IMG/VR virus record: IMGVR_UViG_3300005253_000050
Location: 29,601 to 93,600 of that record
DNA: 64,000 bases
Source: a virus
Reading direction: 5' to 3' (one strand)
Part shown: in pieces, positions 17,476-36,106 of the stretch
Layout: each line of letters starts with the position of its first letter
Numbering within the stretch: the stretch's first letter is position 1
The notes under the pieces: generated by a model
Told to the model about the DNA's origin: nothing
Seen by the model: only the letters and a program-made list of their open reading frames with translations
The model's database searches: none
Made by a program: the position numbers and the translations under genes

Positions 17476-17786
17476 TGTCCAGCCGCTCACTGGAAGAAAC
17501 GGTCGAGCTGATCAATGCCTGCTACGAGCAACACCGTGAAAATGAGGCGCGCTGGGAGAAAGAGGACCGCATGGACGAAGCCGAACTGCATTATTATCGG
17601 GCAGTTCAATGCATGAACTCGGCCATCGGATCCCTCCGTAGTTCAGCCAAGTGGTGGAGCGATATTGACCAGCTGCTGATGGCTAAGTTCTGTGAAGAAA
17701 AAGCCGTCTCGCTGGAAAACGGCAAGCCGCCGATGCGAGTTGAGTTTGTGCTGGCGGCCGAACTTCTCAAGGAGCAGACCCCATGA
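17475..17786 (+). CDS. Hypothetical protein
   Basis: TGATG and ATGA overlaps. Confidence 0.6.
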   Translation: MSSRSLEETVELINACYEQHRENEARWEKEDRMDEAELHYYRAVQCMNSAIGSLRSSAKWWSDIDQLLMAKFCEEKAVSLENGKPPMRVEFVLAAELLKEQTP

Positions 17787-18688
17787 AAGACACCCGGAGC
17801 AGCAGAGAACCTCTGATCATCCACCACGCGGGGTGCGCGGACGGAATATGCGGCGCGTTGGTTTTGTGGCTCGGGCTGGGCCGTCGCGGGGCACTCCTGC
17901 CGGTTCAGTACGGGGACGCGCCGCCGGACATCAAGACCATCGAGGGCCGCGAGGTGTGGATCGTGGACTTCAGTTATCCACGGGGAATCCTCGAGGACAT
18001 GAACGCCGAGGCGTCGAACATCATGGTGCTTGATCACCACAAAACCGCGGCCGAGAACTGCGAAGGGCTGGACTTCTGCACGTTCGATTCGACCAGGAGC
18101 GGCGCGAAGATCGCCTATGATCTAATGCTTGGGTTGGGGCGTTTGCGTGGAGAGCCTCCCGACCTGGTGGACGTCCTCGGTGTCTTGGTGGCCTACGTGC
18201 AGGATCGGGACCTCTGGACCTGGGAGCTGAAAAACAGCAAGGAGATCTCGGCCTGGCTGGCGAGTTGGCCGCGGACGCTTGAGAGCTGGTACGAGCTGCT
18301 GTGCCGGGTGACCCACCTTGGTTTCGGGCGGATGGTGGGCGAAGGCCAGGCGCTCCTGCGGAACAACGACAACCTGATCAGCTCCATGGCGAAGCAGGCC
18401 GAGGCGGTGGACTGGATCCCGGAGTCCTGCCCGCCGCTGCGGGTGCTGCTGGTCAACAGCCCGGTGCTCCACTCCGAGCTCGCCGCGAAGCTCCTGGCCG
18501 CCCGCGAGTGCGACTTCGTGTGCGTCTGGCGGCGGACCAAGGACAAGTTCGTCTACAACCTGCGCTCGACCACGGTGGACGTGAGCCAGATCGCGCGGGC
18601 ACTCGGTGGGGGCGGGCACGCCAAGGCGGCCGGGTTCTCGAGCCCGTCCCGGCCCGCGCGGTTTTTCGTCACGGCGGAGAAGAGCTAG
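17783..18688 (+). CDS. DHH/DHHA1 family phosphoesterase
   Basis: IHHAGCADG, VDFSY, LDHHKT, DRDLW, LRS...GGGGHAKAAGF. Confidence 0.9.
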   Translation: MKDTRSSREPLIIHHAGCADGICGALVLWLGLGRRGALLPVQYGDAPPDIKTIEGREVWIVDFSYPRGILEDMNAEASNIMVLDHHKTAAENCEGLDFCTFDSTRSGAKIAYDLMLGLGRLRGEPPDLVDVLGVLVAYVQDRDLWTWELKNSKEISAWLASWPRTLESWYELLCRVTHLGFGRMVGEGQALLRNNDNLISSMAKQAEAVDWIPESCPPLRVLLVNSPVLHSELAAKLLAARECDFVCVWRRTKDKFVYNLRSTTVDVSQIARALGGGGHAKAAGFSSPSRPARFFVTAEKS

Positions 18689-26934: not shown

Positions 26935-28737
26935 ATGGCCGCTCAGACGCCCGCACCGCCCGAATCAACAGAACTCACCGTGACGGTGATCAAGGCCGCC
27001 CCGAAGATCGATGTTGACTTCGGTCGGGCCCGGGAGGACGCCGACGAGGTGCAATGGGGACTGAGTTTCCCGCTCCCGCGTCCCTTAGATGTAGATAAAC
27101 TCCTGCTGCTCTTCTCGGTTTCGGATACGCTCCAGCAATGCGTCGACGCAATGGTGTCAAATATTGACGCCAGGGGATGGGCTCCCGAGCCTGTCCTGGA
27201 CCTCGATGCAGACGATGCCGCGGAGCAGGTAGCGACGGCGATGTATCTGGAGCGCCGGTCTCGATCCCCGGCCGCCTCAATGCCGACAGCAGAGGAGGTG
27301 GAGGAGACGCTGAAGGAGTGGCGGCGCGAGGCCCGTCTGGAGAAGGCGCTGCTCAAGCTGCGCGTCAAGGCCCTGTGCTACGAGAGCTCTTTCTCGGAGC
27401 TCCGCCAGCAGAAGCGTCGAGACCGAGAGGTGATCGGGTGGGGGGCCTGGGAAATAATCCGCAGCGACAGCGGCGATATCGTCCGCGCGAAGCACGTCCC
27501 GTCGCGCACACTCTGGCTGACTACGATCGATGACGAGGTCACCGCGACGCCGGCCTGGCTCCCGACGAGCGATGTCAGCCGCGAGGCCGTTATCGTCGAC
27601 CGGCGCTTCCGGCGGGTGATCCAGATCGACAGCGCTGGCGCCTATACCTATTTCAAGTGGTTCGGTGATCCGCGGATCATCTCGGCCAAAAGCGGGAAGC
27701 CCTACGACTCTGAGAAGGACCTCCTCGAGGCTGATGGAGAAGACCACGAGGCCGGCGAGGTCAAGGGTGAGCCCCCGAAGCCGGCGACGGAGATCTTGTG
27801 GTTCGGGACGTACTACCCGGAGGGCGCCTACCCGCAGCCACGGTGGCACGGGCTGATCCCGAACATCGTCGGCAGCCGCGAGGCGTCAGAGGACAACGCC
27901 CGGTACCTGTCGAACTCCGCCATCCCCCAGGGGCTGCTCCTGGTCTCGGACGGGCGGGTCGGCCCCTCGTCGAAGGGCAGCCTGTCGACGTTCTTCGAAT
28001 CGAACGAGGGGAATGCGCGGCAGAAGATCGCCGTGGTGGAGGCCACCACCCCGCGCGAAAACGCGATCCTTCCTGGGTCCGGCCGCGTGCAGCTCGAGTG
28101 GGTGTCGCTGCGGCAGGCCCAGCAGGACGACCTCACCTTCAGCCAGTACATCATGATGACCTCCGACCAGGTGGGCGAGGCCTTCCGCCTGCCGTCGCTG
28201 CTGCGCGGCCGGGTGAAGGACCTGAATAAAGCCAACGCCGTCGCCGTGCTGGAGTTCGCCGAAGACCAGGTGTTCGCCCCGGAGCGCCAGTCCTTCGACG
28301 ACCTCATCAATGACACCCTGGTCGCCAACTGGGGGATCCGGTTCTGGCGCTTCAAGTCCCTCGGCTCTCGCAAGCGGGATCCGGAGTCCATCGCCAAAAT
28401 CGCCGAGGCGTTCCTCCGCGCCGGCGTGGTCACCCCCGCCGAGCTGCGGGATCTTGCCGAGCAGCTGCTGGGTGTCGACCTCCCGAGCTCGGCCAGCGAC
28501 TGGCAGCACATCACTCAGCTGATGGTCACCGCCGGCCACATCCCCCCCTCGGCCAAGCCGCCGGAAACGGTGAGCCAGCCAGTCGGGCCGCCGGCGGATC
28601 CGGATGAATTGCAGGAGCCGCCGACCGGGTCCGCCGAGGACATCGCGAAACGGATCCTCAAGATGGAGGCCTTCCTTGCCACTGCCCGCCAGGCGGAGGC
28701 GATGGCCACGATGCCGGAGCCCGATGGAACTTCTTGA
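26935..28737 (+). CDS. Portal protein (PBSX/XkdE-like)
   Basis: Position and size; GWGAWEIIR...HVPS, YPQPRW, NARYLSNSAIPQGLLLV, AFRLPSLLRG...NKANA, TPAELR. Confidence 0.88.
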   Translation: MAAQTPAPPESTELTVTVIKAAPKIDVDFGRAREDADEVQWGLSFPLPRPLDVDKLLLLFSVSDTLQQCVDAMVSNIDARGWAPEPVLDLDADDAAEQVATAMYLERRSRSPAASMPTAEEVEETLKEWRREARLEKALLKLRVKALCYESSFSELRQQKRRDREVIGWGAWEIIRSDSGDIVRAKHVPSRTLWLTTIDDEVTATPAWLPTSDVSREAVIVDRRFRRVIQIDSAGAYTYFKWFGDPRIISAKSGKPYDSEKDLLEADGEDHEAGEVKGEPPKPATEILWFGTYYPEGAYPQPRWHGLIPNIVGSREASEDNARYLSNSAIPQGLLLVSDGRVGPSSKGSLSTFFESNEGNARQKIAVVEATTPRENAILPGSGRVQLEWVSLRQAQQDDLTFSQYIMMTSDQVGEAFRLPSLLRGRVKDLNKANAVAVLEFAEDQVFAPERQSFDDLINDTLVANWGIRFWRFKSLGSRKRDPESIAKIAEAFLRAGVVTPAELRDLAEQLLGVDLPSSASDWQHITQLMVTAGHIPPSAKPPETVSQPVGPPADPDELQEPPTGSAEDIAKRILKMEAFLATARQAEAMATMPEPDGTS

Positions 28738-30094
28738 GCTCCCCAGCCGCGAGGTGCTGGTGCAGCGAGGGCCAAGCGTTGGCTTCGTCGGCCCGTCCAT
28801 GGCCCGCGTCCGCATCCCCAAGGCATCCCAGGCCCAGGGTTACGTGCTGCTCCACCGCGGCGCTCACGGCGCCTGGCAGACGTTCCGCCTGACGTCGCGG
28901 AAGGAGACAGCCGCCAGGAAGCGGGCCGCCCGGGTGGCGCGGCTCATTGGCCGAAAGATTATTCTCGGTGAGCTCGTCCAGGTGGCCGGGGAGACGCAGG
29001 TGATCCGATCCATCGCCACCTACGAAACGATGTCCAAGGCCGAGCTATTCGCCCGAGCTGCAGCTGCGGCCGGCGAGGTGGCGGACATCTACAAGGCCAA
29101 GGATCCGGACCCGTACAACCCCCGGCAGTTCGACAAGATGACGGACGCCCTCGCGCGCGACCTTAACAGGGTGGCCAAGCCGGCGTTTGTAGCCACGGTC
29201 GAGAAGGCCGTGACGTCGTCCAAGATCGACTGGGCCACGGCCACCGAGAAGCAGATGGAGGCCTTCAGCAAAAAGCTCGCCGCAACTCTTGGCGTCTCTG
29301 CCGCTGCGGTCTGGAAATCGATCCGCCCCACGGTGGTTGACTCCTCCGTGACGATGGCCACCGAATCCCGCGCAGCCTTCGTGAAATCGAACAATCTCAC
29401 GGTGGACAGGGTCATCTCGCTCCAGGACAAGGCGGCCGTGACCAGGTCGGCGATGACGAACGCGCACTACGTGCGAGAGTTCGCGACCGGGCAGATGAGC
29501 CCGAGCCTGAGTTCGCAGGCCCGGGTGATCGTCCAGTCTGGAATTAGCAAAGGCGAGAGTTCCCGGATGATCGGGAAGGAGCTCCACCGGGTTCTCGGCC
29601 GGGCGGCCGGCGGCCAGACCGAGGCCTACTTCCGAATGGCTGCGAGCGCGATCAACGCCAGGTCCCGGGAGTTCTCGTCGTTGCGATCCATGCAGGACGC
29701 GGGGATCGATAAATACGAATGGAGCTCGGTGCTCGATGAGATGACCACGGAGACCTGCCGCTTCCTCGACGGCCAGGTATTCTCTGTTCAGGGCGCACTC
29801 GACCGATACAAAGCCGCCGACGCTCTAGAAGACCCCACAGACATCAAATACGAGATGCCGTGGTTCTATGACAAGCCGATCCGCGGCGGCGAGCACGACG
29901 GCAAGATGGGAATCTTTATGAACCAGCGCGGGGGGATGCAGCGTGTCGCTGTGGTTGAAAAAGGTGGCTTCGGGAAACGGGACGCGATCGGCACCTACTC
30001 CAACACCAAAAGCTCAAAGGCGTTGGAGGGAATGGGGATGCCTGCATGTCCAGGGCACAGTTTGTGACGCAGCACTACCATCCCGGTAGATTAA
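28724..30094 (+). CDS. MuF/SPP1 gp7-like head morphogenesis protein with in-frame TGA at 30065-30067 (ends at 30067 if read as stop)
   Basis: YEWSSVLDEMTTETCRFLDGQVF and P-G-H-S-L-[TGA]-R-S-T-T, matching the family motif P-x-H-x-x-C-R-S. Confidence 0.85.
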
Positions 30095-30112: not shown

Positions 30113-30451
30113 ATGAGCAACATAATCCAGCCCGGACTCTCGCACCTGATCAGCACCATGGATCTCGCCCGCATCGAGGACGCTGTCCACAAGGCGGTGA
30201 TGCGCTCGGCCGAACTGCGTGGACAAAAGATGTACACCGAGGGCAAGATCTCGCACAGCGAGTACGACCGCCGCGCGAAGTACTGCATCGAGCTCGCGCT
30301 GCGCTGGCGCAAGGAGCGTCGGTTCGCGCTCGAGCAAATCGGCGACGCGCTCAAGACCGCCCTGATCAGCTGGATCGACGGCGATGAATACGAGCCCCGC
30401 GACGGAATGTGGGCCGACCCCGACCAGAACAACCCGGCAGGTACATTATGA
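30113..30451 (+). CDS. Hypothetical protein in the head module
   Basis: GAGGAAG RBS; ATGA overlap with the next gene. Confidence 0.7.
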   Translation: MSNIIQPGLSHLISTMDLARIEDAVHKAVMRSAELRGQKMYTEGKISHSEYDRRAKYCIELALRWRKERRFALEQIGDALKTALISWIDGDEYEPRDGMWADPDQNNPAGTL

Positions 30452-33400
30452 GAATCCTGAAGTCCCTCGACCCCCACTACCTGGTGCATCGGCTCGCCTC
30501 CGATCAGATCGTTGGCGTGCTCGCTGACCGCGACCTCGGCGCCCTGGCCGATGACGACATGATGCTGGCAGACGGTGAGGTGGACCCCGACTGTGAGCCT
30601 CTCGCCCATGGCGTGGTGCGGCTCCGGAAGGGCGTGCGGTTTGCCTCTGGCGAGGCGGCCGTCGCCAAGCTCGGCGAGAAGCTCGACCCGTTCATGGCCC
30701 GGACTTTCGGTGCGTCCGCTGACCCGGTGTGGTTCCACCCGCTCAAGTCCGTGGACGCCTGGGAAGAGGCCGCCGTGGTGAAGGGGCTGGAGGTGCCAGT
30801 TCGAATCCTGAAGGCCGCCGAGGTGATTCCGGATGAGGGCGCGCTGAGCGAGCTGAGTTCTGCTGGCCTTGGCGAGGTGGCGAAGCTACTGGACTCGAAT
30901 CCAGAGAGTGAGGGCGCCGAGGAGTTGGCGGTGATCGTGAAGGCCGAGTACGATCGCCGCGGACTCGAGCCCGATGAGTCGCTGCTGATCTTCAAGGGCC
31001 TCTGGGGTTACCCCGCTGGGAAAGCCAGACTGTCGAAGCGATTGGTTGAGATGATGCCAACGCACAAGGTCTACGTTGAACCATTTGTCGGGAGTGGCGC
31101 GGTGCTATTCGCGAAAGAGAAAGTAGGCACCGAGGTTGTGAACGACACCGACCCAGCTGTGGCCGAGGCCTGGCAGGTTCTTTCTGAGTTGACCGCGCAA
31201 GATCTAAAGCGCCTCTGTGGGATGAACTGGACCGGCGATCGTGACACCTTCACGAGAATGAAAAAAGAGACCGGCGGTGACGACGTAGTCAAGCTACATC
31301 GGTTTTTCTATCTCTCTAAATTTGCTTATGGTCGGTGGCGAGGGACTGGATTTTCTCCTGAAATGCAAGGACATACGGTCACAATGGCCCGAATGCTGGA
31401 AAAGAACGCTCCCCGTGCCCAAGGCGTGGTCGCTCTTCATGGTGACTACGAGGCCGTGTGTCGTAAATACGACGGCCCAGACACGTTACACTTCCTCGAT
31501 CCTCCGTACGCTGGATATGCCTCCGCTGTGGGAGAAAAGAACTTCGACGAGGAGCGTTTTTTTAAGATGCTCAAGGAACTCAAAGGGAAGTGGATCGTCA
31601 CATACGGGGTCAAGGGCAAGCTACCCAAGATGCTCCGTGATTCCGGATTTACTGTAAAGAAGGTCACCACCCATCGTTCGATCCGGACGAGCGTCGCCTC
31701 CACGAATCCGTCTGCGGTGCTTGATCAACTGATCGCATACAACTTCGATCCGAATGCCAAGGCCGAAGACCCAGCGCTTGCCCCGACAGAAGAGCCAGCC
31801 GAGGCGCCTGTCGAAGCGGAAAAAAAAAACCTAAATTCCCCGGACGCTGAGAAGCAGGAGGGCTCGCCGGTCCTCTGTTTCTATCACGGCGATCTGGACG
31901 GCGTGGCGTCCGCCGCGGTTGTTCTTCAGGCCCACCCGGCCGCCGAGCTGGCGAGCATCAACTACGGGCAGGAGTTCCCATGGGACACCATCAAGGACCG
32001 CGAGACGGTCTACATGGTGGACTTCGGGATGCAGCCGTTCGAGGAGATGGTCAAGCTCAAGGCCGAACTCGACGAGATGGGGACCAGGTTCGTGTGGATC
32101 GACCACCACATCACCGCGCTCGAGGCCGCAGAGAAGGCGGGCTTCGAGGTCGACGGTCTCCGCGAGATCGGCCAGGCCGGCTGCGAGCTGACATGGAAGT
32201 TCATCCACCCCGACGACCCCATGCCGGAGGTGGTTCGCCTCGCTGGTCGATTCGACGTCTGGGACCACGAGGACCCGAACGTCCTGCCGGTGCACTACGC
32301 GATGGAGGCAATCCCCGAAGCCAACGACCCGAGCAGCGAGTGGTGGGCCGAGTGGCTCAAGAAGGGCGAGGGGGACTTCGCTGAGCTCGTCGCCCAGGGC
32401 AAGGCGATCCAGGGCTGGCTCGAAGAGTTCAGCGCCGGCCGGATGAGGTTCTCGTCCTTCGATGTGGACTTCGCTGGGCTCAAATGCGTGGCGGCCTGCA
32501 CCTCTCTCCCTGGGTCCATTCAATTCGAGTCGGTTGGCAAGGAGCACGACGCCGCGATCTCGTTCTGCTTTTCGCCGAGAAACCAGTGGAACGTCTCGAT
32601 GTATTCCATCAAGGAAGGCGTCGACGTCGGGAAGGTCTGCATGGACAACGGCGGCGGTGGTCACGCTGGCGCCGGCGGGTTCCAGTGCACGGAGCTGCCG
32701 TTCGACCTCCCGGCCTCCACCAAGAAGGCTTACGACCTCCGCGAGCCCCTCGCCGCCTACGCTCACGACGCCTGGTCTCGGTGGATGGATCATCTCTTCG
32801 AGCAGGCATCTCCCGACGGGACGATGGCGCCCGAAGACGTGGAGCGATGGAAGCGCCTGATCACGACCAAGTACGCCGACCTCACCGAGGATGAAAAGGA
32901 GTCCGATCGCCTCGAGGCGGACCGGTTGCTGGCGGTGATGAGCGGGCGGGACGACGAGGTCGAGAAGGCCGCAGTGGCACCGCTTGCCCCGGCCCCGGCG
33001 CTCGCCGTTTTCAAGCCGACCGAGGAGAACTCCTTCGACGACGTGAAGGAGCTGCTCGAGAAGTTCGGGACGGACGAATCACTCGGCGCCGGTGTCGGGG
33101 TCGGGCCGAAGTGGAACGGCCAGCTCGCCATCGTTCACAGCGTACCTGACGGCGTGTCGATCCACTACGAAGGCAACCCCACCGAGCAGGCTCCGAACCT
33201 CAAGGCCATCGCCGCGTCGGCCGCCAAATTCGACGACGGGTATGCTCTCATCGGCGAGGTGGTGGAGGCTGACATCGGCGCGGTGTTCATGGCGCGCGAC
33301 GTGCTCCACTGGGCGGGTGTCGACCACTCGGCCGAGCCGTGGTCTGCGCGACAGAAGATCCTAGACCAGGCGGTCCCGCAGGCGACCGCCGCCATCGCCC

Positions 33401-34305
33401 CCGCCCCCGCTCGGCTGGTTCATTCAGCCGACACTTTGAAGGCCGCGATCACCTGGGCGGCCGAGGTTCCGGGATCCGTCGGGGCGGTGATCACCCCCGC
33501 TGATTCAGTCGCGACGCCAGGTGGATCCGCACCTCAGATTGCCGAGGTTCGGACCCCTCGGATCGTCAACGCGATGGTGGTCGGAGCGGATTCGAATCCG
33601 GATGGATCCAACGTCTATCAGTGCGCCGTCGGGCCGCTTTCGGATTCGGAGTCAGATCGTCTTAAAGAGGTGGTCGAGGTCGGTGGGCGGAACTATGCAA
33701 TCGTCGGATCTGTGTGTACACCTTCTGTGAATGCCTCTGTGGGCGATACACTAAGAGTGGAAGTGGGCGAAATATTGGTGGTTGACAGCGAAGATTCGGC
33801 CGCGATAGGATGGGACTCATCAAAGGTACTCGAGCGGGTGCACGTAAAACCCGCGACGGTATCCGAAGTTCGAGCACTGGCGCGACCACATGAGATCCAG
33901 AAACTCTGCAAAATCCTCAAGCGCGATTCGGAGCGGCATTACATCCTCAGTGTTGTGCTCGAGCCGAACGATGGCAAGGGCGAAGCACCACTGGATCCCG
34001 ACGCCCACAACGATATTTACTCCGACGACGAGATCTGGGATGCCTGCGTGTATTGGTACGAGCAGGGCGCCGGCCTTGGCGTCATGCATGAGCGCGGAGC
34101 GACCACCTCAGAGCTGCTCCCGGTCCACAATATCATCGCCCCGGTCGACATGGAGATCGGCGGCGAGTTTGTGCGGGCTGGTTCGTGGCTCATTGGATCT
34201 CTCGTCCTATCTGCCGACCTCTGGCAGCGGATTGAATCTGGGGAGCTCAACGCGTGGAGCGTTGATGGACGAGCGCTTCGGCGCCCCGAGGCAATAGCAG
34301 CTTGA
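30448..34305 (+). CDS. Polyprotein: unknown N-domain + D12/Dam-like N6-adenine methyltransferase + DHH/DHHA1 phosphoesterase + RyR-like helical domain + degenerate ATP-dependent ligase fold + XkdF-like prohead protease
   Basis: GYPAGK/YVEPFVGSG/FLDPPY; YHGDLDG/WIDHH/GGGGHAGAGGF; KWNG/LIGE/ARDVL; SVVLEP/DAHND/GVMH/GSWL/WQRIESGELNAWSVDG. Confidence 0.88.
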   Translation: MRILKSLDPHYLVHRLASDQIVGVLADRDLGALADDDMMLADGEVDPDCEPLAHGVVRLRKGVRFASGEAAVAKLGEKLDPFMARTFGASADPVWFHPLKSVDAWEEAAVVKGLEVPVRILKAAEVIPDEGALSELSSAGLGEVAKLLDSNPESEGAEELAVIVKAEYDRRGLEPDESLLIFKGLWGYPAGKARLSKRLVEMMPTHKVYVEPFVGSGAVLFAKEKVGTEVVNDTDPAVAEAWQVLSELTAQDLKRLCGMNWTGDRDTFTRMKKETGGDDVVKLHRFFYLSKFAYGRWRGTGFSPEMQGHTVTMARMLEKNAPRAQGVVALHGDYEAVCRKYDGPDTLHFLDPPYAGYASAVGEKNFDEERFFKMLKELKGKWIVTYGVKGKLPKMLRDSGFTVKKVTTHRSIRTSVASTNPSAVLDQLIAYNFDPNAKAEDPALAPTEEPAEAPVEAEKKNLNSPDAEKQEGSPVLCFYHGDLDGVASAAVVLQAHPAAELASINYGQEFPWDTIKDRETVYMVDFGMQPFEEMVKLKAELDEMGTRFVWIDHHITALEAAEKAGFEVDGLREIGQAGCELTWKFIHPDDPMPEVVRLAGRFDVWDHEDPNVLPVHYAMEAIPEANDPSSEWWAEWLKKGEGDFAELVAQGKAIQGWLEEFSAGRMRFSSFDVDFAGLKCVAACTSLPGSIQFESVGKEHDAAISFCFSPRNQWNVSMYSIKEGVDVGKVCMDNGGGGHAGAGGFQCTELPFDLPASTKKAYDLREPLAAYAHDAWSRWMDHLFEQASPDGTMAPEDVERWKRLITTKYADLTEDEKESDRLEADRLLAVMSGRDDEVEKAAVAPLAPAPALAVFKPTEENSFDDVKELLEKFGTDESLGAGVGVGPKWNGQLAIVHSVPDGVSIHYEGNPTEQAPNLKAIAASAAKFDDGYALIGEVVEADIGAVFMARDVLHWAGVDHSAEPWSARQKILDQAVPQATAAIAPAPARLVHSADTLKAAITWAAEVPGSVGAVITPADSVATPGGSAPQIAEVRTPRIVNAMVVGADSNPDGSNVYQCAVGPLSDSESDRLKEVVEVGGRNYAIVGSVCTPSVNASVGDTLRVEVGEILVVDSEDSAAIGWDSSKVLERVHVKPATVSEVRALARPHEIQKLCKILKRDSERHYILSVVLEPNDGKGEAPLDPDAHNDIYSDDEIWDACVYWYEQGAGLGVMHERGATTSELLPVHNIIAPVDMEIGGEFVRAGSWLIGSLVLSADLWQRIESGELNAWSVDGRALRRPEAIAA

Positions 34306-35126
34306 CTTCGTTCAGTAACTTTTTTCTCAGCGCCGCACAGAAAGCCAAAGACCCGGATGAGAAAGACAAGATCTTCAGGCTGCGACGGATTGCCATTGAT
34401 GAAGTCCACCTGGTCAACGCTGGCGCCAACAAACAAACTTTTTTGATCCGCAAGGACGAGGGAGCTACCATGAAAACCGCAGACATGATTCCCGGTGCCA
34501 CGGGCATCAAAAACTCCGCCGGCGTGGTCGTCACCAAGGCCGACGCCATGGCAGGTGCCGACGAGGACCTGCAGAAGCTGATCGAGAAGATGGCGAAGGA
34601 GGGCAGCGGTTCTCCCGAGGGACTGGTCGACAGCCTCAAAAACATTTCCAAGGTGCTCGCGAGCGTGGCCCAGAAGGCCGAGGAGCCCCCGATGGAAGAG
34701 GACCCCCCCGCCGAGGAGCCGCCGCCCGCCGAGGAAGATGACACCGAGAAGGGTGCCGCCGCCCCGGCTCCCGCCGCGAAGGCCGAAGGCGAAGGCGTCG
34801 AGGCGGCTGTCGCGAAGGCCGCGCCCGCCGACCCGTTCAAGACGATCGACGACCAGCTCGAGCGAATCCAGAAGGCCGAGCGCGAGATCAACAGGGGCAC
34901 CATCGCCACCAAGGCGGTGGAGGTGCTTCAGAAGATCGCCGGGGGCCTGGGCATCGAAGAGAAGAGGGTGATCCAGGAGAAGCTGGTGAACATCGCCAAG
35001 TCGCTGGGTGATGCGCCCGCGCCGGCGAAAATCCCCGACGGGAATTCCAAGCCCGGTGAACACCCCGTCAAGCCCCCCCAAGATGGCGGCTGGGACTTGT
35101 ACCAGGACATCAACGAGAAAAAGTAA
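34302..35126 (+). CDS. Capsid scaffolding-like protein (TTG start; nested ATG start at 34470)
   Basis: Lies between protease and capsid genes; acidic Ala/Pro-rich coiled coil; N-terminal IDEVHLVNAGAN strand; GAGGGAG RBS before 34470. Confidence 0.75.
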   Translation: MTSFSNFFLSAAQKAKDPDEKDKIFRLRRIAIDEVHLVNAGANKQTFLIRKDEGATMKTADMIPGATGIKNSAGVVVTKADAMAGADEDLQKLIEKMAKEGSGSPEGLVDSLKNISKVLASVAQKAEEPPMEEDPPAEEPPPAEEDDTEKGAAAPAPAAKAEGEGVEAAVAKAAPADPFKTIDDQLERIQKAEREINRGTIATKAVEVLQKIAGGLGIEEKRVIQEKLVNIAKSLGDAPAPAKIPDGNSKPGEHPVKPPQDGGWDLYQDINEKK

Positions 35127-35161: not shown

Positions 35162-36106
35162 ATGACCCCTAACCAGGACCAACTCGTGAGGCTCAAGAAG
35201 GCAGCTTGGGGCTACACTGATCTGTCGTCCGGCGGCGGCCTGATGAATCAGGCTTACGCCAAGGAATTCGTGGAGCTCACCGTCAAGGAATCGGTGGCGA
35301 TGAAGGACATGAACGTCTTTCCGACGCCCGCTGCCACCTACAAGGTGCCGAACCTCGCCTTCAGCGGCACGGTGCTTTTCCCCGGTGTGATCGGCCAGGC
35401 CCTCCCGGATGCCTACCAAAGCCAGCCCGACTCCGACAAGGTCGAGTACGTGGCGAAGCTGTACAAGGCCAAGATCGGTATCCCCGACGAAATCCTCGAG
35501 GACAACGTCGAGGAGGCCAAGCTCAAGTCCCGCGTCCAGGGCCTTCTGGCCAAGAAGATCCGCTCGGACTGGGAGTGGATCATCTTCGAGGGCGACACCG
35601 CCAGCGCCGTCCCGACCCTGGCCGTCCAGGACGGGCTGTTCAAACTCGCCACGTCCAACACCAAGGACGCCGGCGGCGCGCAGCTGTCTCTCACCCAGCT
35701 CAAGGCGGCCTGGAAGCTCATGCCGAGCGAGTTCCGGGGGCAGAAGAAGGACATGAGGGTTTGGTGTGGCGCCAATCCTGTCGAGGACTACGGCGACTCC
35801 ATGATGGATCGCCAGACCCAGGTGGGCGACAACGCGATCAAGGGCGACTGGGACGGCCCCTGGTTCAAAAAAATGCCCATCGTCGACGTCCCGAAGATCG
35901 CCGAGGACCTCACCCCGGGTACGTACAGCCACGCGCTGTGCTGCCACCCGAAGAACGCCACGGTCGGCATCTGGAAGAACATCGAGATGGAGCCGGAGCG
36001 CGACGCCGACGCCGGCGTCTGGAACCTCATCGTTCGTCTCCGGTTCGGCATCGCCTGGGCCGAAGAGAACGGCGTGGTCGAGATCACCAACCTGCTCGCC
36101 ACGTAG
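35162..36106 (+). CDS. Major capsid protein (HK97 fold, XkdG-like)
   Basis: Position, 314 aa, strong codon bias; GGLMNQAYAKEF, ILEDNVE, FEGDT, DGLFK, HPKN. Confidence 0.88.
   Translation: MTPNQDQLVRLKKAAWGYTDLSSGGGLMNQAYAKEFVELTVKESVAMKDMNVFPTPAATYKVPNLAFSGTVLFPGVIGQALPDAYQSQPDSDKVEYVAKLYKAKIGIPDEILEDNVEEAKLKSRVQGLLAKKIRSDWEWIIFEGDTASAVPTLAVQDGLFKLATSNTKDAGGAQLSLTQLKAAWKLMPSEFRGQKKDMRVWCGANPVEDYGDSMMDRQTQVGDNAIKGDWDGPWFKKMPIVDVPKIAEDLTPGTYSHALCCHPKNATVGIWKNIEMEPERDADAGVWNLIVRLRFGIAWAEENGVVEITNLLAT

Follow-up and report, generated by a model that had tools for sequence, protein, structure and literature searches.

The window analyzed here is a stretch of 64,000 nucleotides (nt; positions 29,601-93,600 of the IMG/VR virus record IMGVR_UViG_3300005253_000050; all coordinates below are window positions), and at the protease position among its head genes it carries one long open reading frame (ORF) whose product places an adenine DNA methyltransferase, a DHH phosphoesterase and a ligase-like fold in front of an XkdF-type prohead protease. 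On balance, and with only slightly more confidence than doubt, we favor the possibility, drawn from sequence comparison and structural models, that this product is a phage polyvalent protein which is anchored on its prohead protease and loads cargo into the head. Capsid loading and self-processing are both plausible. The catalytic motifs of the methylase and of the DHH enzyme are intact, whereas those of the ligase-like fold are not. Recurrent Lys junctions between the domains, taken together with a predicted docking of the protease on a peptide encoded by the next gene, support a concrete route into the procapsid.

A prohead protease at the end of an uninterrupted polyprotein

A preliminary description of this DNA, made from the sequence alone, had placed an XkdF-type protease at the end of a single uninterrupted ORF of about 1,285 amino acids (aa) at the protease position. 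Both parts of this claim hold. The C-terminal domain matches PF14550 over aa 1155-1276 with 61.3 bits (cut-off 24; 66.4 bits when the whole genome was scanned), and its Asp, His and Ser residues (Table 1) are invariant in sets of 15, 48 and 35 sequences and follow one another in the order seen in assemblin-type proteases. The domain, modeled as part of a larger chain, aligns over its whole length with T4 gp21 (5jbl) at a middling Z of 7.6 (root-mean-square deviation, rmsd, 3.1; 111 residues). XkdF occurs once in the complete genome and is the only prohead protease family detected there; the same complete-genome scan found no protease of the S78, ClpP or S49 families.

On the + strand, a GTG at 30409 and the stop at 34303-34305 bound the open frame. 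The ATG at 30448 is the likely start, because relatives share the N-terminus M(K/R)ILKSLDPHYL. The genes run in the order portal, MuF, a 112-aa ORF, the polyprotein, a scaffold-like gene and the major capsid gene, in a complete genome of 93,600 bp that has a GC content of 62% and direct terminal repeats (121 bp, exact). The methylase-to-XkdF layout was found in 15 proteins from independent JGI, ENA, Logan and NCBI assemblies, five of which are nearly collinear with the polyprotein (61-66% identity); full-length relatives from independent assemblies reach 61-69%. One of these relatives, 69% identical and accompanied by the same scaffold gene, is encoded on JAAEQC010000157.1 (L084; 91,929 bp), a contig binned into a metagenome-assembled genome (MAG) as 'bacterium isolate Gpa_8'; the contig looks like a phage genome that was placed in a MAG. 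When the whole polyprotein and a 450-aa methylase-XkdF relative were compared by tblastn with 50,697 phage records, none covered 80% of either query at this sensitivity.

Table 1. Polyprotein, its segments and neighboring genes, in window positions (pLDDT, predicted local distance difference test; SAM, S-adenosylmethionine; NTase, nucleotidyltransferase; OB, oligonucleotide-binding; a slash marks a junction)
Feature	Positions	Strand	Residues and remarks
Polyprotein ORF	30448..34305	+	1,285 aa plus stop (likely start); ATG overlaps stop of upstream 112-aa ORF (ATGA)
ASCH/PUA-like mobile module (weak, predicted fold)	30448..30798	+	aa 1-117; model pLDDT 76
Helical segment	30799..31002	+	aa 118-185; ends ...IFK/GLWGYPAGK, junction before methylase
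D12-class N6-adenine DNA methyltransferase	31003..31767	+	aa 186-440; PFxGSG SAM-binding motif, DPPY at aa 351-354; low GC3
A10 run in methylase-DHH linker	31820..31829	+	longest homopolymer in genome; both shifted frames stop within 1-9 codons
DHH/DHHA1 phosphoesterase	31864..32712	+	aa 473-755; DxD (482, 484), D525, DHH (552-554), GGGGH (735-739)
Helical, weakly RyR-like module	32713..32976	+	aa 756-843; ends ...EVEK/AAV
ATP-dependent-DNA-ligase-like NTase+OB fold	32977..33882	+	aa 844-1145; K888 kept in KWNG; motif IV VG..T, motif V E.R
XkdF (Peptidase_S78_2) prohead protease domain	33883..34302	+	aa 1146-1285; invariant D1185, H1214, S1271
Scaffold-like gene	34302..35126	+	274 aa; TTG start overlaps polyprotein stop (TTGA); ATG there in relatives
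Conserved peptide of scaffold-like protein	34368..34460	+	aa 23-53; consensus hRLxDh..EEVSLVDRAANKRxFLhhKR; predicted docking on XkdF
Portal protein	26935..28737	+
MuF-like minor head protein	28604..30067	+
Major capsid protein	35162..36106	+	phrog_1623 / phrog_10

Junction motifs and predicted docking on the scaffold-like protein

A motif consisting of a hydrophobic residue, then Glu, Asp or Gln, then Lys, and followed by a small residue, recurs at the inter-domain junctions of diverse relatives. Ahead of the methylase it reads VEK/TIWGSPAGK in most of 29 diverse methylase starts and IFK/G in this protein; behind the methylase it takes the form NYxxxxK followed by Ala or Ser, and a Lys junction also precedes the DHH domain. 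The ligase-like fold is preceded here by EVEK/A, and XkdF by IQK/LCKILK here and by FEK/RIPLLK in relatives. Judging from this pattern, the motifs may be cleavage sites with Lys at the P1 position; in the polyprotein the candidate positions are K185, K459 or K468, K840 and K1151.

At 43 or more of 47 loci, the gene 3' of XkdF opens with a strongly conserved peptide. No other part of the protein shows recurrent Pfam similarity; that of the peptide is weak and concerns the C-terminal end of HK97-type S78 proteases. Prediction of a complex between XkdF and the scaffold peptide gave a score of 0.76, compared with 0.00 for the best of three controls. Of 80 solved complexes 58 attained such a score, as did 2 of 110 mismatched pairs; these counts are only rough, since the analyst's own alignments were used. 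The docking runs agree in at least 85% of contacts, the pLDDT of the partner is at least 46, and the invariant Ser1271 is among the contacting residues. The predicted docking supports binding of the peptide by XkdF without showing it; if the docking is real, it would provide a way into the procapsid for the entire chain.

In most relatives the docking peptide (...FLIRK) is followed after 3-6 residues by a Met; here a Shine-Dalgarno-like GGAG is followed by an ATG at 34470. The position of this ATG suggests nested long and short forms of the scaffold, as for lambda C/Nu3. A programmed frameshift between the protease and the scaffold gene was also considered and can be rejected: elsewhere the distance from the stop to the downstream gene is 35-400 nt, and that gene occurs in all three relative frames.

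Methylase and DHH phosphoesterase have intact catalytic motifs

That the ORF contains a D12 adenine methyltransferase, as first proposed, is borne out by a Pfam score of 58.5 bits against a cut-off of 22 (PF02086, aa 189-387) and a PDB profile match to 7m6b (E 1e-19), and both PFxGSG and D351-P-P-Y354 are invariant among relatives. The score for the GATC-specific Dam subfamily (TIGR00571) is 48.6 bits and lies below the cut-off of 114.85. Palindrome statistics for the genome gave no pointer to the methylase target: GATC is not avoided, and its 670 sites are not depleted. No other D12 methylase is present in the genome. The methylase segment had also been described as visibly more AT-rich than the DHH segment, and this is so; its GC content is 0.54 and its GC content at third codon positions (GC3) is 0.61, compared with GC3 values of 0.85-0.88 in the flanking domains. 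Its identity among relatives, 51-70%, is likewise below the 73-81% of its neighbors. We found no support for the earlier suggestion that DNA is methylated inside the head during packaging.

The DHH/DHHA1 phosphoesterase proposed for the middle of the chain is likewise present. The Pfam scores fall just short of their cut-offs for both DHH (aa 478-587; 26.2 bits, cut-off 28.1) and DHHA1 (aa 698-749; 15.6 bits, cut-off 25.9); the region matches PHROG 4771 with an E-value of 1e-34 over aa 473-750, all motifs are present, and DxD, D, DHH and GGGH are invariant among six relatives. The DHH cargo is what sets this polyprotein apart.

A second, stand-alone DHH/DHHA1 protein of 301 aa is encoded in the non-structural/early region (17783-18688, + strand) and is 27% identical to the DHH domain of the polyprotein. 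Stand-alone DHH genes in Izimaplasma and Omnitrophota MAGs (L085 and L086) are closer to this domain (37-38% identity), and the DHH subfamily of the polyprotein therefore also occurs outside phage polyproteins.

A candidate slippage site between the methylase and the DHH domain

The A10 run in the linker between these two enzymes has counterparts in an A11 run in the same linker of L084 (7370-7380) and an A10 run just upstream of DHH in the relative L003 (2527-2536). A run of A10 or A11 has thus been kept in three relatives (62-69% identity) although the linkers are otherwise unconserved; Lys is normally encoded by AAG in this genome. On this pattern the run is a candidate slippage site that could give rise to a free methylase product of about 460 aa, which suggests that some of the methylase is set free for use in the producing cell.

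A degenerate ligase-like fold and two weakly assigned modules

The preliminary description had recognized an NTase+OB fold resembling that of ligases. The fold stands; the catalytic motifs IV and V are degenerate. An AlphaFold model (pLDDT 77.7), which also includes the XkdF domain, was compared by Foldseek and VIA and matched ATP-dependent DNA ligases over both the NTase and the OB part (Foldseek E 2e-13), with a VIA Z of 19.1 for the ligase of A. fulgidus (rmsd 12.9, 265 residues aligned) and of 17.1 for the ligase domain of M. tuberculosis LigD. By sequence the likeness is faint: phmmer with the ligase region alone found no match among PDB sequences, a profile search was only marginal, and PF01068 gave 13.3 bits, below its cut-off of 26.2, whereas relatives exceed this cut-off at the same position.

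The catalytic motifs of ligases are KxDG (motif I), EGxxxK (IV) and KxK (V) in the nomenclature of Shuman. The distant relative P0016 has KIDG, EGAMCK and KFK at these places and the polyprotein has KWNG, VGAVIT and EVR; that is, Asn replaces the Asp of motif I, both the Glu and the Lys of motif IV are gone, and so is the first Lys of motif V. The close relative P0006 lacks even the nucleophilic Lys, and half of the NTase domain is missing from L004. Among the large domains this region also shows the lowest conservation (48-59% identity, versus 73-77% for DHH and 78-83% for XkdF). Judging from these motifs, the ligase-like fold is probably an inactive pseudo-ligase, and next to the protease it is probably a structural or DNA-binding relic. 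Since the catalytic residues are lost, a role in countering or repairing nicks, one of the functions first proposed for the cargo, is unlikely in this phage. The presence of a dead-looking fold indicates that such trains gather pseudo-enzymes and is a caution against inferring function from domain names alone.

The small RyR-like helical domain of the earlier reading was located as a module, and its RyR identity is weak: PF02026 scored below cut-off both here (E 0.086, aa 760-832) and in L003 (E 0.00095), and the region is modeled with low confidence. The module is absent from relatives P0005 and P0007.

The first 185 residues, left unassigned in the preliminary description, may comprise a weakly ASCH/PUA-like module and a helical segment. 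The best VIA structure matches of the model of aa 1-117 are chains of the ASCH family, which cover aa 1-103 with middling Z scores: 7.3 for YqfB (rmsd 3.3, 94 residues aligned), 6.9 for PH0355 and 6.7 for the Zymomonas ASCH protein. This module has no Pfam match, and an ESM Atlas search with aa 1-120 returned no usable match. In relatives P0008 and P0010 the ASCH-like module sits internally.

Cargo varies across the XkdF family

The proposal that the cargo consists of swap-in modules and that N-terminal cargo would vary across XkdF-family proteins agrees with our survey. Relatives of the polyprotein gain or lose a second methylase, a DLPDS-motif module, the RyR-like module, DHH and lactamase_B. 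In 80 viral loci XkdF is almost always C-terminal, behind N-terminal extensions of 0-1,766 aa. Among 48 XkdF ORFs on viral contigs the cargo was a D12 methylase in 25, a pyrophosphatase-type domain in six, a ligase in five, and a 2H phosphoesterase and a DHH domain in one each; the most frequent passenger in the family is the methylase, and DHH is rare. Simpler methylase-XkdF proteins are encoded at L027, L030, L039, L042, L044 and L063, loci whose identifiers are those of IMG isolate genomes. A profile search of 1.84 billion representatives (clusters at 50% identity) found 11,066 XkdF clusters at E<=0.001; among the best 150 cluster representatives, 125 have at least 150 aa ahead of XkdF, and in 132 no more than 30 aa follow it. 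The domain searches and structure predictions that the preliminary description had proposed as a check thus confirm the train of domains, some modules being weak.

Several relatives (P0003, P0004, P0005 and L004, 8954-9200) have an additional module between the methylase and DHH, which measures about 100 aa and carries the motif DLPDSSFLYIEPGG...RxLRxFPVRD...HVRNA.

Discussion

A plausible scenario for how the polyprotein would act is as follows. The protease domain would dock on the N-terminal peptide of the scaffold protein, which is made from the next, translationally coupled gene, and would co-assemble with it into the procapsid, pulling the train of enzymes inside. Once concentrated there, the protease would cut after Lys in the hydrophobic-E/D/Q-K junctions, and cutting would release folded enzymes too large to leave through the shell. 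The freed enzymes would remain with the DNA and accompany it into the next host. There the methylase could shield the DNA on its arrival, and short or cyclic nucleotides could be broken down by the DHH enzyme. Slippage on the A10 run would probably also yield a free N-terminal methylase that methylates progeny DNA before packaging.

More tentatively, and here we lean against rather than for, XkdF and the N-terminal scaffold peptide, which resembles the last segment of HK97-type proteases, might form a general modular device for loading cargo. The peptide would dock on the protease or complete it in trans, any chain fused upstream would enter the procapsid, be cut at the hydrophobic-E/D/Q-K junctions and be injected with the DNA, the DHH enzyme would act before phage genes are expressed, and slippage on the A10-11 run, whether transcriptional or ribosomal, would set the ratio of free to packaged methylase.

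Several points weigh against loading of cargo into the head. With 93.6 kb of DNA in the head, there may be no room for many copies of a folded 140-kDa passenger, which might instead be degraded as the scaffold is. The Lys junction motifs could merely be the conserved edges of domain families. The score of the predicted complex expresses the confidence of a model, and the fold of the peptide is uncertain (pLDDT below 50 in one run). Furthermore, the degenerate ligase fold means that not every module is a working enzyme. Two other points lead directly to an alternative: the methylase is the only one of the D12 class in the genome and therefore presumably acts on progeny DNA in the cytoplasm, for which packaging would not be needed, and the A-run points to a free methylase product.

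In this alternative, which we consider unlikely, the polyprotein is simply expressed late and its enzymes act in the producing cell. Cleavage by the protease of the chain itself, or truncation through slippage, would take place in the cytoplasm or at the prohead; the methylase would modify progeny DNA before packaging, the DHH enzyme would act on host nucleotides late in infection, and nothing functional would be delivered to the next host. In addition to the sole D12 methylase and the non-depleted GATC sites, the retention of the A10/A11 run in three relatives, with shifted frames that close within 1-9 codons, is in keeping with such a role, and the second DHH paralog in the early region shows that this activity is also wanted in the infected cell. 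Co-expression alone, however, leaves unexplained why the cargo is consistently fused N-terminal to the protease and not to other late genes. Prohead proteases are generally active only after assembly, which also speaks against this alternative, as does the predicted docking on the scaffold peptide.

A different function altogether, in which the passenger is mainly structural (a filler of the internal core or inner-body kind, or an extension of the scaffold) and derives from decaying enzyme folds whose catalysis is irrelevant, seems improbable to us. The ligase-like fold would suit it, given its degenerate catalytic site, its low conservation relative to DHH and XkdF, and the relatives that have lost the nucleophilic Lys or half of the NTase domain. 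The catalytic motifs of the methylase and DHH enzyme, on the other hand, are all invariant among relatives, and the rank of the methylase as the commonest passenger argues for selection on enzyme function. Finally, an assembly or gene-calling artefact that merged separate genes, which the preliminary description had raised against itself, can for practical purposes be dismissed: the shift in composition inside the ORF is the sole point that could raise suspicion, and the same unbroken architecture, without stop codons, is found in at least six other assemblies (JGI, ENA/Logan, IMG/VR and an NCBI MAG; 47-69% identity), so that one frame in independent assemblies excludes an assembly artefact.

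There is experimental precedent for enzymes that are loaded into heads, trimmed by a protease or injected, and the concept that we favor is not new. Polyvalent proteins were defined by Iyer, Burroughs, Anand, de Souza and Aravind (2017; PMC5512222), who noted that assemblin-like peptidases are always C-terminal in them and probably process them during virion assembly. The polyprotein matches this definition, as it unites several unrelated enzymatic domains in one chain, lies among packaging and head genes and ends in an assemblin-like peptidase, and packaging with processing was predicted for those proteins too. The differences are in the particulars. The class with assemblin-like peptidases is given two sentences in that study (PMC5512222) and is called limited in distribution; its methylases are DarB/EcoKI-TaqI-like and paired with helicases, whereas ours is of the D12 class. 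The text does not contain XkdF, DHH, D12/Dam methylases, ASCH or RyR, and uses 'ligase' for RNA ligases only; nor does it describe the junction motif, the docking on a scaffold peptide or the slippery run.

DarB of phage P1 is a head-packaged methylase that acts on incoming DNA (PMC5512222). Like the polyprotein, the Dar antirestriction system has a DNA adenine methylase domain, which in DarB is carried in the head and here is predicted to be. DarB, however, is a methylase-helicase of another methylase family, is not fused to a prohead protease and needs other Dar proteins for loading. In T4, Alt and the internal proteins are loaded by means of a capsid targeting sequence and cut by gp21 (PMC7411985), and T4 Alt, IPI-III and the SPN3US ejection proteins exemplify loading into the prohead core, trimming by the protease, retention in the head and ejection with the DNA (PMC7411985). 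The XkdF domain may also share its protease fold with T4 gp21. The T4 passengers are the products of separate genes, each with a short N-terminal targeting peptide, and are cut after Glu; those of the polyprotein are covalently linked to the protease, with candidate cuts after Lys. MuF-anchored polymorphic toxins and effectors resemble the polyprotein in that a head-internal protein anchors variable effector domains, and differ in that the anchor is MuF, with cargo at its C-terminus, and in lacking a protease of their own; in this phage MuF is encoded by a separate gene a short way upstream. A literature search for virion proteomics of methylase-protease fusions found nothing relevant.

If loading on the protease is correct, thousands of uncultured phages would use their head protease as a carrier that pre-loads enzymes for the entry of DNA, when expression of phage genes is not yet possible and the outcome is decided by restriction and signaling defenses. 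Among cultured phages the fused form of XkdF is nearly missing. With the junction motif and the predicted docking on the scaffold peptide, the 2017 prediction becomes directly testable; both features also hint at a natural means of placing proteins of choice in HK97-fold capsids.

Plain XkdF proteases belong to the same Pfam family and have a scaffold-like gene directly downstream, but lack passenger domains; examples are XkdF of PBSX and the 156-aa ORF54 of a Pakpunavirus (L083, NC_042113.1), the latter in the same slot between the portal and the scaffold and major head genes. In many records of Pakpunavirus (Pseudomonas phages) the plain protease is annotated as 'DNA methyltransferase', likely because PHROG 1530 mixes plain and methylase-fused proteases; both PHROG 13242 and PHROG 1530 seem to hold fused members.

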